In this document: one piece after another, positions 5,738-15,225 of the stretch
How positions within the stretch are numbered: the first letter of the stretch is position 1
Layout of the letters: every line of letters starts with the position of its first letter
Assembly (NCBI GenBank): GCA_963831295.1
Contig: CAWHPR010000003.1
Location: 387,746-451,745 of the forward strand
Origin: an uncultured Thermoleophilia bacterium
GTDB taxonomy: Bacteria > Actinomycetota > Thermoleophilia > UBA2241
Length of the DNA stretch: 64,000 bases
Reading direction: 5' to 3'
Notes under the pieces: model-generated
Seen by the model: the letters and a program-made list of their open reading frames with translations, nothing else
Database searches by the model: none
Told to the model about the DNA's origin: nothing
Made by a program: the position numbers and the translations under genes

Positions 5738-6419
5738 TCAGCCCGCTTCGCGGGCGTCCTCGCTCCGCTCCTCCCCGCCGTCTTCGCCGCGCACCGCCGC
5801 CAGCCGCTTCTTGAAGCCGGTCTCCTCCATGATGGTCTGCACTTCGGCGACAACGTCGTCGGGCGGGTAGAGGTCGCCGAGACCGAGCTTCTCGCGGATC
5901 TCGAGCAGGTGGTCCATGTAGTCGGTCCACTTCTCGCCCCACGCCTCGAAGACGCCGGGGAACATGAGATGCGGGTTGCCGCCCATCCCCTTGTCGTAGA
6001 AGTTGCCGCACCATTCGGCGAACATCTCGACGTGCCGGCGCCCGGCGCCCATCTCCACCTGCAGGCCGCGGACGACCTGATTGATGACCGCGACCGAGTT
6101 GTGACGCGGGCAGCGGCTCTGGCAGGTGTAGCAGTAGAAGCAGTACCAGATCGCGTCGTCGGTGAGCAGGCTCTCGTCGCCCTCGAGGGCGCGGCGCGCG
6201 GTCTCGCGCGGCGAGTACTCGGTGAAGCGCGCGGCGGGGCAGCCCGAGGTGCAGATGCCGCACTGGATGCAGCTCTGGAAGCCGTCCTTGTGGTCGTGCA
6301 TGCGCGGGTCGTTCGAGGATGCGGGCGACGAGCTCCGGGTCGCGCTTCGGCGCCGAGGTGAAGCTGTTGTCGGCGATGAGCGCGCGCGGTCCGTCGGGCG
6401 TCGTCTTCTCGTCAGGCAT
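5738..6419 (-). CDS. HdrC-like 2x[4Fe-4S] protein; 1 frameshift near 6310
   Basis: MPDEKTTPDGPRALIADNSF.. joins CIQCGICTSGCPAARF...WYCFYCYTCQSRCPRHN (ORF 5738..6538). The start overlaps the upstream gene's end by 8 nt. Confidence 0.75.
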
Positions 6420-7588
6420 CGGTCGCGGCCTCCGGGGGCGTCTCTGCGGCCGAGAAGAACTCGGGCCAGAAGTGGACGGGGACGTCGAGCTTGAGCTGCC
6501 GCGCGGCGGAGCGGACGTTGTCGCGGCAGAGCACGCACGGGGTGACGATGGGGGCCTTCTGCCCGGCGGCATAGCGCAGCAGGCGCTCACTGCCCTTGGT
6601 GGCGCCGCGGTACATGCCGCCGAGGGCGCCGCAGCAGGCGCTGTGCAGGGTCGGGAAGTCGAGGCGCAGGTCGGCGCCCGAGAGCTCGGCGGCGGCGGCC
6701 AGCGCCGCCAAGCGCCGCGTCGCGGTCGGCGAGGCAGCCGACGTAGGGGACGAAGGCGGGCGCGGCGGCTCGCAGGGCGAAGCCCTGACGTCGCGCCCGC
6801 TCCGCCAGCGTGTCCCAGAGAGGCGCGGTCGAGATGCCGGCCTCCGCGAGGCTGGCGTCGCAGGCCGGGCAGGCGGTGTAGACGAGCTGGTCCGGCCGGA
6901 AGTGGCTCGTCACGGCGCCGCGGCTCGGGTGGCCGCAGCAGCCGGCGTCTCTCTGCCTCGTCGAGGACGACGCCGAAGCCGGCGGCCACTTCGTGGACGC
7001 GGGCGTGCAGGGCGCCGTCCTGGGGCAGTGCGCAGCCGGCGTAGAAGGGCAGCGTGAGGGCGTCCGGGCCGGCGGACTTGGCCGCTCTGCGGGCGGCCGC
7101 GGGGCCGGCCCCTCGCCGGCCGGGGACCATCTGTGTCGTCGCCTTGAAGCCCGCCTCGGCGGCGCCGACGAGGTCGCGCGGCACGTGACCGCGGCTCGCC
7201 ATCGTGGCGCCGAAGACGAGGTTGTCGATGCGCGGGTGACCGCTCGAGCCGCCGCGCGGCGACCTCGGCCGCCGATCGTTCCGGGCAGCGCAGACGGCCG
7301 CTCTCGCGCTCGATGGCGCGGAGACGCCGCAAGCACGTCCGCGACGTCGATGTCCATGCGGCAGGCGTCGGTGCAGGCGCCGCACTCGGTGCAGCGCCAG
7401 AGGTCGTCGGAGTCGAGAACGACCGCGATCTCGCCGGCGAGGATCAGGCGCACCAGGCGCCGGGGCCCGCGGTAGAGGTCGCGGCCGTTCGGACAGCTCG
7501 AGGTGCACTGGCCGCACTGGTAGCACATGACGCACTCCTCGGCGAGCTGCTCGAACTCGGCGACCACGGTGTCAGCGTACGTGGGCAC
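6412..7588 (-). CDS. HdrD-like fusion: N-terminal 2x[4Fe-4S] ferredoxin domain plus two CCG (HdrB-type) domains; at least 3 frameshifts
   Basis: The pieces are:
- VPTYADTVVAEFEQLAEECVMCYQCGQCTSSCP..WRCTECGACTDACR (ORF 6587..7828 frame)
- LTLPFYAGCALPQDGALHARVHEVAAGFGVVL (4728..7535 frame)
- DAGCCGHP..YTACPACDASL..FVPYVGCLAD
- HSACCGALGGMY..TPCVLCRDN (ORF 6412..6711)

GGGAGG lies 8 nt upstream of GTG 7588. Confidence 0.65.
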
Positions 7589-13900: not shown

Positions 13901-14288
13901 TCTGGTGGCGCGCCCGCGCGACGGCGCCCTCGACGATCTTCTTCGCCTTCTCCTGGGCGCGCTCGGGCTCGTGGCGGTGCACGAACGAGCAGCCCTCGCG
14001 GATGTTGGCGAAGGCGACCGCGTTCTCGCCGAGCTTCAGCTCGCGGGCGATGCGGTCGAAGGTCGGGCCCTGGAAGCGCTGCGAGCAGGAGGCGATGACG
14101 ACGTGGTCGAGGCCGCGCTCTTCGACCGCCTCGGCGATGAGCTCGCGGCCCTCGGTGCCGCACATGAACTGGTTGACCGCGACCTCGACGACGCCGTCGA
14201 GGGTGCGGGCGTGGGCGGCGAGCGGCTCCATCTCGACGACGCCGGAGATGTTGCCGCCGCACTCGCAGAGGAAGACGCCGGCTCTCAT
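10932..14288 (-). CDS. Large HdrA-like protein with an inserted GltD/NfnB-like NAD(P)H:FAD module (HdrL-type architecture); 2 frameshifts (near 12705 and 12082)
   Basis: The pieces are:
- MRAGVFLCECGGNISG..ALVVGGGIAGMSAA..TEDCAMCSL..CVGCGECVPVCP
- GltD-like SVCGRVCTALCETAC..VAIVGAGPAGLTCA..VVVIGGGDVALDAAR (ORF 12423..14582)
- AIRLQAAAGHEPDVTLVYRR..VFAGGDAA..AIAAGRRGAAAIH (frame of 10420..15225)
- WAEVSRGYTAEEAVAEAQRCLNCAVCSECDSCVRACP..MLQCVGSRD..CSAVCC..CIACGVCEDACP..CRGCGICAAECP (ORF 10932..11726 and its upstream extension). Confidence 0.8.
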
Positions 14289-15225
14289 CGCGCACCCCCG
14301 GCCTTCGTCGTGGCCCTCGTGGACGAGGTCTTCGCGAGGCGCCGATGCGCTCGAGGAGCGGCTCGACGTCCTGTGAGTGCGTCTCGACGCCGAGCACCGT
14401 GTCGGGGTCGGCGCCCAGCGCCAGCGCCAGGAGCTGCTGCACGTGCAGGTGCACGAACGGGTACTCCTCGTGCGTCGTCGCCGAGATGATGTCGTGGTAG
14501 CGGTCGAACTGCACGTGGCAGTTGGGGCACATGTGCACGCAGACGTCGACCTTCTCCTCGGCCAGCCGGCGCAGTTTCTCACGCGTCACCGCGACCGAGA
14601 TCGACGGGTTCACGAAGCGCTGGCGGAAGCCGGCGCCGCAGTGCGTGGTCTTCTCGTTGTAGGCGCCGGTCGGGACCGCGCCGGCCGGAATCAGGAGCTC
14701 CTCGGGGACCATGAAGTTCTCGCTGCTGCCCATGGTCTCGTCGGGGAAGACCTTGCAGTAGTGGCAGGCCGGGTGGGTCGCGACCTTGAGGCCGTCGAGG
14801 CGACGGCGCACGAGCCCGGGGATGCTCTCGTGCGCCCCCCACAGGATGTCGAGCGCGTGCCGGTGCTCGACGGCGCCGGCCACGCGGTCGTCGTAGCGGC
14901 GGCCGACCTTGGCGAGCACGGCGTTGGTCTGCGCGCGGTACTCGTCGACCTCGAGGATGTTGCGCGCCTTCTTGTTGACCGCGTAGCAGGTCGAGCAGAG
15001 GTAGCTGACGATGGGGTGACCGTCGTCGACGGCGACGCACGCGTTGCGGGCGGCGAGGCCGACGGTCGTCTCGATCGGGATGAGGTCCGAGTAGTACCCG
15101 AGCCCGGTGCAGCAGGTCTGCTGGGGGTTCACCGTGTACTCGATGCCGAAGCGCTCGAAGAGCCACTTCGTCGACGCTTCGACGCCGGGGTACTCGGCGG
15201 AGACCAGGCAGCTGCGGAAGATCAT
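14285..15225 (-). CDS. HdrB-like CCG-domain protein; probable frameshift near 14340
   Basis: MIFRSCLVSAEYPGVEAS..QQTCCTGLGYY..SYLCSTCY..THPACHYC..THCGAGF..VHMCPNCH..VEPLLERIGAS. The listed ORF then reads through 1300 further codons of other genes. One frame gives a TGA at 14285 that overlaps the next ATG (ATGA), matching the coupling pattern of this operon. Confidence 0.75.

Follow-up and report, generated by a model that had tools for sequence, protein, structure and literature searches.

Within a 64,000-nucleotide stretch of DNA from an uncultured Thermoleophilia bacterium (GenBank assembly GCA_963831295.1, contig CAWHPR010000003.1, positions 387,746 to 451,745 of the forward strand; hereafter the window), we identified a compact seven-gene operon for flavin and iron-sulfur (FeS) proteins related to heterodisulfide reductase (Hdr). 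The genes, which we number g1 to g7 in their minus-strand order, encode an HdrB, an HdrA with an NfnB/GltD insertion (HdrL), an MvhD, a 2x[4Fe-4S] ferredoxin, an HdrA-MvhD fusion, an HdrD-like protein and an HdrC. The operon is a lineage-specific form of the HdrL / HdrA-NfnB type, which has already been described and is biochemically uncharacterised. By analogy with characterised relatives, we give about an even chance to the reading that the operon encodes one soluble multi-flavin FeS complex of the HdrABC/MvhD class, which would couple NAD(P)H, ferredoxin and a disulfide by electron bifurcation or confurcation.

Results

An NfnB/GltD module nested within HdrA

The seven proteins were read as conceptual translations joined across frame changes (see below), and their domain content was checked by Pfam, NCBIfam and PDB sequence searches. 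For comparison we used six orthologous loci, L001, L082, L083, L085, L086 and L087, of which L001 is the closest. The product of g2 (HdrL, 10932-14288, on the minus strand like all seven genes; assigned by Pfam and PDB searches) is a full HdrA, with an N-terminal domain, a thioredoxin reductase (TrxR)-like FAD domain, an inserted ferredoxin domain and a C-terminal ferredoxin domain, and its two HdrA stretches match the HdrA chains 5odc_A and 9sfi_A with E values of ~1e-162 to 1e-170. Between both CxxCxxCxxxC motifs of HdrA's inserted ferredoxin domain lies an insert of ~500 amino acids (aa), which is an almost complete NfnB/GltD module with 2x[4Fe-4S], FAD and an NAD(P)H Rossmann fold. Pfam detects Fer4_20 and Pyr_redox_2 at residues 290-682, and residues ~290-720 match the NfnB chains 4ylf_B (E 2e-83; residues 45-462 covered) and 5jca_L (E 2e-73; residues 49-473 covered); related GltD-type modules match too. 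Across 11 diverse g2 homologues (40-68% identity), every cluster cysteine is invariant, as are the glycine motifs (GxGxxG) for FAD and NAD(P)H, and a YRR motif, of a kind that usually goes with NADPH, is nearly so (at least 90%). The best NCBIfam model for g2 is HdrA2, with 718 bits against a cut-off of 1100. Relative to L001, the ratio of nonsynonymous to synonymous substitution rates (dN/dS) is 0.10-0.28 over the three frame segments of g2, the third giving 0.098.

The mvhD gene lies immediately downstream of hdrL, g3 overlapping g2 by 4 nt, and likewise follows it in the more distant loci L002, L003, L004 and L008. The g3 product (10420-10935; Pfam and NCBIfam) is an MvhD-like [2Fe-2S] electron-connector subunit that matches Pfam FlpD (E 3e-42) and the NCBIfam model VhuD (126 bits), with a dN/dS of 0.16 versus L001. 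It is followed by g4 (9983-10420; Pfam), a ferredoxin of 145 aa with two Fer4 domains whose position is conserved in 6/6 orthologous loci. The next gene, g5 (7572-9986, 804 aa; Pfam, PDB and NCBIfam), encodes a second full HdrA with a fused C-terminal MvhD domain, an HdrA2-like architecture. Residues 16-629 match 5odc_A (E 9e-88), all cluster motifs and the DCxxC motif (Cys197) are retained, and the MvhD domain is recovered in the PDB sequence search with an E value of ~1e-17. Here too the best NCBIfam model is HdrA2 (484 bits, cut-off 1100), and dN/dS versus L001 is 0.15.

Two putative catalytic heads

The first gene of the operon, g1 (14285-15280; Pfam, PDB and NCBIfam), encodes a true HdrB homologue, which matches 5odc_B over its full length (E 5e-39) and contains two Pfam CCG domains; its best NCBIfam model, 'ferredoxin:CoB-CoM heterodisulfide reductase' HdrB, scores 333 bits, under the cut-off of 450. 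Its two CCG motifs are predicted to bind two non-cubane [4Fe-4S] clusters. Nine of the ten HdrB ligand cysteines are kept and the first CCG motif is complete. The second (window ~14640-14750) reads H-C-G for C-C-G, a histidine replacing C193, and an additional cysteine is found three residues past the first ligand of this motif (ACHYC). Both HCG and the extra cysteine are present in 7/7 HdrB orthologues of the lineage (window, L001, L082, L083, L085-L087), while the HdrB of M. wolfeii and those adjoining the distant HdrL in L002 and L003 have C-C-G without the extra cysteine. Judged from these alignments, HCG/ACHYC appears to represent a rewired ligand at the distal non-cubane cluster, conserved in the lineage. 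We presume that g1 is partnered by g7 (5738-6419; PDB and NCBIfam), an HdrC-like protein with two [4Fe-4S] motifs that matches 5odc_C (E 3e-19) and, over its full length, the methanogen 'ferredoxin:CoB-CoM heterodisulfide reductase' HdrC model of NCBIfam (best model, 201 bits, cut-off 270).

In g6 (6412-7588), an HdrC-type 2x[4Fe-4S] N-terminus (HdrC match, E 3e-20) is fused in one chain to two divergent CCG-type motifs. The C-terminal 250 residues gave no sequence match, and the Pfam CCG domain is only faint there; the protein nevertheless carries two five-cysteine motifs of the form C...CC...CxxC, in which 10/10 CCG-motif cysteines are invariant among orthologues, with a shortened CC-to-CXXC spacing in the first. 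An AlphaFold2 model (mean predicted local distance difference test score, pLDDT, 78) matches M. smegmatis EtfD (9ojn; template-modelling score TMq 0.54), LutA (9a6l) and HdrC. Cysteine pattern and predicted structure thus both point to an HdrD-like fold. The g6 family is lineage-restricted, with 362 matches and at least 66% identity among the matches listed.

Counted by homology, the seven proteins together would hold ~3 FAD, ~20 cubane [4Fe-4S], 4 non-cubane [4Fe-4S] and 2 [2Fe-2S] cofactors. None of them contains a hydrophobic segment above 1.6 on the Kyte-Doolittle (KD) scale, that is, none suggesting a membrane helix.

Conservation of the seven-gene unit

More than 100 full-length intact homologues of g2 (1112-1150 aa) share 63-94% identity with it, and at the 90% identity level more than 100 clusters have at least 63% identity; where a source is named, these come from metagenome-assembled genomes of Thermoleophilia, Gaiellaceae or Actinobacteria. 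The closest homologue (P0001, 94% identity) lies on a 634-kb contig in locus L001, which shares 86-97% DNA identity with the window over at least 26 kb of synteny and in which all seven genes were called intact and in an unchanged order, overlapping by 4, 4, 1, 4, 17 and 8 nt.

Each of the six orthologous loci has the seven-gene unit intact and with its gene order unchanged (HdrL identity 63-94%), and the flanks differ among them: hemEHY/nadA/thiS are found in some, and Suf genes, phosphoketolase/acetate kinase or others elsewhere. A functional link to haem biosynthesis (hemEHY) or to nadA/thiS was considered and rejected, since these flanks are limited to closer relatives and absent in L083 and L087. 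The six loci are independent of one another and their flanks are unrelated; the operon appears to be self-contained. Within 10 kb of the six loci we found no hydrogenase, formate dehydrogenase (FDH), Flx, MetFV, DsrC, TusA, DsrE or lipoate-binding protein.

In a search of 1.8 billion representatives, two HdrL architectures were found. The first is the colinear form of ~1120 aa seen in the window, which falls into several clusters at 50% identity; the second is a longer form of ~1480-1680 aa (~1480-1530 aa among representatives) with permuted or duplicated domains. In the longer proteins (L004:259-4710, L008:9917-14953), the N-terminal HdrA domain comes after the TrxR/NfnB part and is followed by a second, partial HdrA, and in L002:20-4247 the longer architecture is split into two genes. 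The distant loci were collected by a contig motif scan with generic GltD motifs, which missed the close Thermoleophilia species genomes; most of the at least 80 loci hold ordinary GltD/NfnB genes and only L002-L008 are informative. In L003, where the order is hdrC-hdrB-hdrL-mvhD-mvhG-mvhA, as well as in L002 and L008, the genes directly after HdrL are mvhD and those for hydrogenase small (Oxidored_q6) and large (NiFeSe_Hases) subunits; in L004, mvhD is followed by an HdrD-like gene. Since mvhD precedes hydrogenase genes in some loci and an HdrD-like gene in another, HdrL is a module combined with different partners, and in Thermoleophilia the partner position holds the ferredoxin, HdrA-MvhD and HdrD-like genes.

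A ComA-family gene stands directly downstream of the operon in L082 (18833-19654, minus strand), a relative with 67% HdrL identity, next to genes for an FeS protein, a class V aminotransferase and a CobW-like protein. ComA-family proteins are phosphosulfolactate synthases, which perform the first step of coenzyme M (CoM) synthesis in methanogens. Among the loci compared, the gene adjoins the cluster only in L082, and this may be coincidence.

Gene junctions, reading frames and sequence quality

From g1 to g7 the genes overlap by 4, 4, 1, 4, 17 and 8 nt, the first four junctions reading ATGA, ATGA, TGATG and GTGA, and a GGAGG stands ahead of each start at the cluster junctions; overlaps and GGAGG are translational coupling signals. 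The window has a G+C content of 68-74%, and long stop-free frames are therefore common; a list of open reading frames (ORFs) alone misleads in such DNA, and ORF-based readings need frame correction. Using third-position GC (GC3) profiles and three-frame translation, we found an unbroken coding run on the minus strand from ~15280 down to 5738, in which the coding frame switches repeatedly inside single homologous proteins. The frame changes were located by mapping the L001 proteins onto the window with tblastn and by aligning the DNA of the window and L001. (A codon-usage Viterbi frame caller was noisy in 72% GC DNA and served only to choose frames for the Pfam survey.) This revealed at least nine frameshifts across four of the seven genes, the ORFs of which are not intact as written: in g1 at ~15225 and ~14330, in g2 at ~12705 and ~12085, in g6 at ~7327, 7238, 6954 and 6708, and in g7 at ~6311. 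The other three genes, g3, g4 and g5, are unbroken. An ORF of 1601 aa at 10420-15225 was rejected as a gene; coding GC3 is found in only three stretches of it, and it is a stop-free alternative frame of high-GC DNA.

The original prediction, made from the letters and their ORFs, thus had the gene set right, with the seven genes, their order and fusions and overlaps of 1-17 nt, but the frameshifts had gone unnoticed. Its cluster start at 15225 was also wrong: a 1-nt insertion there puts a false ATG in frame, and the genuine start of g1 is the ATG at 15280.

Taken as the sequence stands, at least nine frameshifts in four genes might be real and mark the cluster in this organism as a decaying pseudogene array. 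We consider this very unlikely. One to three frameshifts each are also found in hemE (15836-16857), hemY, nadA (4723-5645), a radical-SAM gene (22853-23773), a glycosyltransferase gene, an MptA-family gene and the cytochrome genes; compared with intact orthologues over a 26 kb stretch, nearly every gene is shifted at the same density, ~1 per kb. Close relatives carry intact cluster genes. Moreover, dN/dS versus L001 is 0.10-0.36 for all cluster genes and all frame segments, and 0.10-0.33 in the frame-shifted segments themselves, a 205-codon out-of-frame stretch of g2 also lying within the low range; the homologous segments have no in-frame stops except those produced by the shifts. Because housekeeping genes are equally broken and dN/dS is 0.10-0.36 throughout, the frameshifts are most likely assembly indel errors rather than signs of decay. 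Contig names in related records hint at a long-read assembly.

Upstream of g1 lies an AT-richer putative control region (15281-15390, minus strand), recognised by reading the sequence. An inverted repeat, CTTATC-N14-GATAAG, is found just upstream of a -35/-10-like pair (window 15300-15390, minus strand): TTGCAG (-35-like) is followed after ~18 nt by CAGAAT (-10-like) and then by GAGGGAG, a ribosome-binding site, and the ATG at 15280. L001, L086 and L082 share the half-sites of the repeat and a -10-like nAnAAT, and L087 has part of them; the spacer varies. The repeat is a candidate operator for a regulator. A consensus promoter/terminator scan returned no matches, nor did an Rfam search and a tRNA scan. 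Between hemE and the operon, on the hemE strand, there is a small conserved ORF (window 15649-15789, plus strand; L001:8374-8622) of 73-82 aa in L001, L082 and L086, which has no Pfam match and whose paired cysteine motifs suggest a zinc ribbon.

Comparison with known systems

With an NfnB module in HdrA and mvhD directly downstream, the operon belongs with the HdrL / HdrA-NfnB fusions. The name HdrL dates from 2009, when it was given to HdrA/glutamate-synthase fusions of Desulfobacterium autotrophicum that carry an NADH site; their genes always have mvhD after them, and they were proposed to feed electrons from NADH into disulfide or sulfite reduction (PMC2702500). The window operon resembles HdrL and MvhD of D. 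autotrophicum HRM2 in its large HdrA/glutamate-synthase fusion, its NAD(P)H site and the adjacent mvhD, whereas the HRM2 proteins are partly selenoproteins with linked dsrABC or fdh genes, two features not seen here. In Syntrophobacter fumaroxidans, an HdrABC/HdrL cluster (Sfum_0819-0824) comprises hdrABC, an FeS protein, mvhD and hdrL; its proteins were seen by proteomics and are abundant with sulfate, and their function is speculative (PMC5947623). The two clusters share HdrL, MvhD, a small 4Fe-4S protein, HdrA, HdrB and HdrC and have no catalytic hydrogenase subunit. They differ in gene order, in the fusion of the second HdrA to MvhD and in the extra HdrD-like protein; this comparison rests on the published description of the S. 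fumaroxidans cluster, and the host here is an actinobacterium in which we saw no Dsr genes. The HdrL of an uncultured member of the Syntrophobacteraceae (L004) is a permuted form of 1483 aa, unlike the colinear ~1120 aa here.

HdrA of the anaerobic methanotrophic archaea ANME-1 has also been described as having its inserted ferredoxin domain interrupted by ~500 aa resembling NfnB; two bifurcation sites, NADPH as carrier and heterodimers of the frequent tandem HdrA paralogues were proposed for these archaea, whose HdrA-NfnB clusters occasionally contain HdrD-like genes (Chadwick et al. 2022, PMC9012536). These fusions (HdrA9-11) agree with g2 in insertion site, and their clusters agree with ours in having HdrA paralogues, MvhD and occasional HdrD-like genes; an archaeal locus (L002) holds a colinear HdrL homologue of 1121 aa at 39% identity. 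The present operon differs in its bacterial host, presumably without CoM and coenzyme B (CoB), and in the changed ligand set of HdrB. In addition, both HdrA here keep the N-terminal domain and Cys197, so that the complementarity argument made for the ANME-1 paralogues fails.

The HdrA2B2C2 complex of Methanosarcina acetivorans is a characterised enzyme with an HdrA-MvhD fusion, which bifurcates electrons from F420H2 between ferredoxin and heterodisulfide with no hydrogenase involved (PMC5296606). All of its gene types are present in the cluster as the HdrA-MvhD fusion (g5), HdrB (g1) and HdrC (g7). The architecture of g5 and the best NCBIfam models, HdrA2 for g2 and g5 and methanogen HdrB and HdrC for g1 and g7, speak for this likeness, and HdrA2B2C2 sets the example of a soluble bifurcating enzyme that needs no hydrogenase. 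On the other hand, HdrA2B2C2 is without the NfnB module, the second HdrA and the HdrD-like protein; all seven proteins of the operon score under the NCBIfam equivalog cut-offs, including those for a reductase of the CoM-S-S-CoB heterodisulfide; and the HdrA2B2C2 substrates F420H2 and CoM-S-S-CoB are unproven or unlikely for the Thermoleophilia operon.

The closest solved structures for g1, g2, g5, g7 and the MvhD parts are those of the methanogen MvhAGD-HdrABC complex (PDB 5ODC and related entries). Both g2 and g5 align with its structural class of HdrA (5odc_A/9sfi_A, E 1e-88 to 1e-170) and g7 has the two [4Fe-4S] motifs of its HdrC; the FAD site and every cluster motif of HdrA are preserved. 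The operon departs from it in the NfnB insertion, in the change of HdrB C193 to histidine with an extra cysteine nearby and in lacking MvhA and MvhG, no mvhA or mvhG being found in the window or in the six orthologous loci with their 10-kb flanks. In the case of NfnAB, the g2 insert aligns with nearly the whole large subunit, with Fer4_20 and both nucleotide folds, but the module is embedded in HdrA and no NfnA/NfnS partner (FAD/[2Fe-2S], PyrK-like) is found in the cluster.

Flx-Hdr loci have flxABCD genes adjoining hdrABC; domains of the FlxABC type were found neither in the cluster nor in its flanks. Nor do metF and metV, which would point to a MetFV-HdrABC-MvhD complex, occur in the window cluster or the six loci. 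The sHdr loci have the layout hdrC1B1A-hyp-hdrC2B2 with lbpA, dsrE and tusA, and a short HdrA without ferredoxin and MvhD parts; lbpA, dsrE and tusA are absent here and both HdrA are full length with MvhD.

We found no description of this operon in Thermoleophilia or Gaiellales in the literature. The lineage is set apart by its two putative catalytic heads, HdrBC and a divergent HdrD-like protein, and by the conserved Cys-to-His change in the second CCG motif of HdrB.

Other genes in the window

A Pfam survey of the rest of the 64-kb window revealed no hydrogenase, FDH, DsrC, TusA, DsrE or lipoate-binding protein. A CooS-type gene lies at ~42394-44385 (minus strand), with a ferredoxin gene upstream (44385-44804, minus strand) and a CRP-family regulator nearby (46233-46933, minus strand). 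The CooS-type protein matches PDB chain 7b7q_A (E 4e-171, 573 bits) far better than the next carbon monoxide dehydrogenase (CODH) chain, 6t7j_B (337 bits), or CODH-II type chains (~236-258 bits). We take 7b7q to be the CODH-V type of C. hydrogenoformans, with a cluster and an activity unlike those of true CO dehydrogenases, and CO oxidation by the protein in the window should not be assumed.

A predicted cytochrome c with 20 haems (20 CXXCH motifs; 29254-30966, minus strand) stands in a row with a 6-haem cytochrome (30875-31699, minus strand) and a cytochrome b561-type membrane protein (31742-32764, minus strand). Further duplicated CXXCH proteins are found at 23900-26500 (minus strand), with NHL-repeat and TPR proteins nearby. 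This row may be an electron-transfer chain to or from the cell exterior in an actinobacterium. A piece called on the plus strand at 29364-30646 was discarded as a wrong-strand call without Pfam matches, the real gene being that of the 20-haem cytochrome on the minus strand. The same survey also showed ordinary housekeeping genes.

Discussion

The domains, motifs and six orthologous loci support the original view of a self-contained operon of the Hdr/MvhD flavin/FeS type that includes an NAD(P)H-type module, in an organism that also carries a CooS-type gene, and the hydrogenase, FDH, lipoate-binding protein, DsrE and TusA genes said to be missing are indeed absent from the window. It does not look like an sHdr locus. 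Its implied novelty was overstated, as the kind had already been described (PMC2702500, PMC5947623, PMC9012536). No canonical partner (DsrC, Lbp, Flx, Fdh or hydrogenase) came to light in the window or in the 10-kb surroundings of the operon in the six loci, and the literature consulted assigns no function by experiment to an orthologous cluster.

In the scheme to which we give an even chance, NAD(P)H, probably NADPH, would bind to g2 at the NfnB-like module inside its inserted ferredoxin domain, from which electrons would reach the HdrA flavin(s) via a chain of [4Fe-4S] clusters and the MvhD [2Fe-2S] connectors (g3 and the C-terminus of g5). The complex would perform flavin-based electron bifurcation, or its reverse, confurcation, with one branch leading to low-potential ferredoxin (g4 or a free ferredoxin) and the other through HdrC-type clusters to the non-cubane clusters, where a disulfide would be reduced. 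The two catalytic heads, HdrB with HdrC (g1 and g7) and the HdrD-like g6, would probably be mounted on a dimer of two different HdrA proteins (g2 and g5). This reading draws on HdrA2B2C2 (PMC5296606), the proposals made for ANME-1 (PMC9012536) and the abundant HdrABC/HdrL proteins of S. fumaroxidans (PMC5947623) as precedents. The sequences themselves show the gene content and cofactor motifs, their conservation under purifying selection, the signals of translational coupling and the lack of membrane segments and of linked partner genes; the single complex of seven products and its stoichiometry, the HdrA heterodimer, the direction of electron flow, the use of NADPH over NADH and the disulfide substrate are all points that we infer.

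Several observations weigh against this scheme. No biochemical data were found in the literature for HdrL-type enzymes, and the reaction is an extrapolation. We tested whether one HdrA lacks Cys197 or the N-terminal domain, as expected for a complementary heterodimer, and this was not found; because both g2 and g5 appear complete, the heterodimer is left without ANME-type complementarity support, and a homodimer is no less possible. MvhAG hydrogenase genes accompany distant HdrL, and NAD(P)H need not be the sole or primary donor. The substrate might not be a disulfide, given the histidine in HdrB and the shortening of the first CCG motif in g6. Finally, no candidate thiol carrier gene is linked to the cluster.

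The link to hydrogenases bears on whether the operon stands alone, as originally proposed. No partner is found in the window or within 10 kb of the six loci; stand-alone status is nonetheless unproven, because the distant HdrL of L002, L003 and L008 adjoin mvhG/mvhA, and MvhD may dock an unlinked partner. Such a partner could be a [NiFe] hydrogenase of the MvhAG type or an FDH, in which case bifurcation would be driven by H2 or formate and NAD(P)+ would be an extra acceptor. The direct succession of HdrL, mvhD and hydrogenase small and large subunit genes in those three loci, along with the fdhAB genes in HdrL loci of Desulfobacterium and Desulfurivibrio, lends this some weight. It is the main rival reading, but we consider it unlikely, as 0/7 Thermoleophilia loci (window and six) have such genes within 10 kb, nor does the 64-kb window, and where other lineages have mvhGA, these loci have fd, hdrA-mvhD and hdrD.

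Alternatively, electrons may run in the other direction or come from another donor: reduced ferredoxin, for instance from CooS, and/or F420H2 would enter at g5 and the complex would make NADPH by Nfn-like confurcation or transhydrogenation, with the CCG sites serving a thiol or non-thiol co-substrate. The architecture and best NCBIfam model of g5 are those of HdrA2, a user of ferredoxin and F420H2; the NfnB module is reversible in Nfn enzymes; and the window includes a CooS-type gene accompanied by a ferredoxin gene of its own. That gene, however, lies at a distance of 27 kb, and other loci do not show it in synteny with the cluster; g5 scores far under the HdrA2 equivalog cut-off (484 against 1100 bits), and no F420 biosynthesis genes were seen in the window, though no search was aimed at them. 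We regard this arrangement as improbable, slightly more so than docking to an unlinked partner.

A role in sulfur metabolism, as a sulfur-oxidising system of the sHdr type or as an Hdr that reduces DsrC, is suggested by two HdrB/C-type modules in one operon, as in sHdr, and by the speculative tie of HdrL clusters in sulfate reducers to DsrC. We regard it as highly unlikely, given that lbpA, dsrE, tusA, dsrC and dsrAB are absent from the window and the six loci and that both HdrA are of the full methanogen type with N-terminal, ferredoxin and MvhD parts, unlike the short sHdrA.

Returning to the NAD(P)H-coupled complex, its most ambitious version would be an asymmetric two-headed bifurcating enzyme, in which a heterodimer of the NfnB-bearing HdrA and the HdrA-MvhD protein joins NADPH and ferredoxin (or F420) to HdrBC, with its His/alternative-Cys cluster, and to the HdrD-like head, acting on an actinobacterial low-molecular-weight or protein thiol. 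We consider this doubtful, a little more so than either of the first two alternatives. If only the ordinary reading holds, the operon is one more uncharacterised Hdr-like operon. The role of Hdr outside methanogens has, however, long been in question, and all HdrL and HdrA-NfnB enzymes are uncharacterised. Compact, translationally coupled and without external partner genes, the operon is a practical candidate for heterologous expression from a family that is abundant in metagenomes, and it could be used to test whether the NfnB module feeds or drains the HdrA bifurcation site and which disulfide gets reduced. A two-headed enzyme, if true, would be unlike any characterised system and would provide a low-potential electron route for widespread soil Thermoleophilia.

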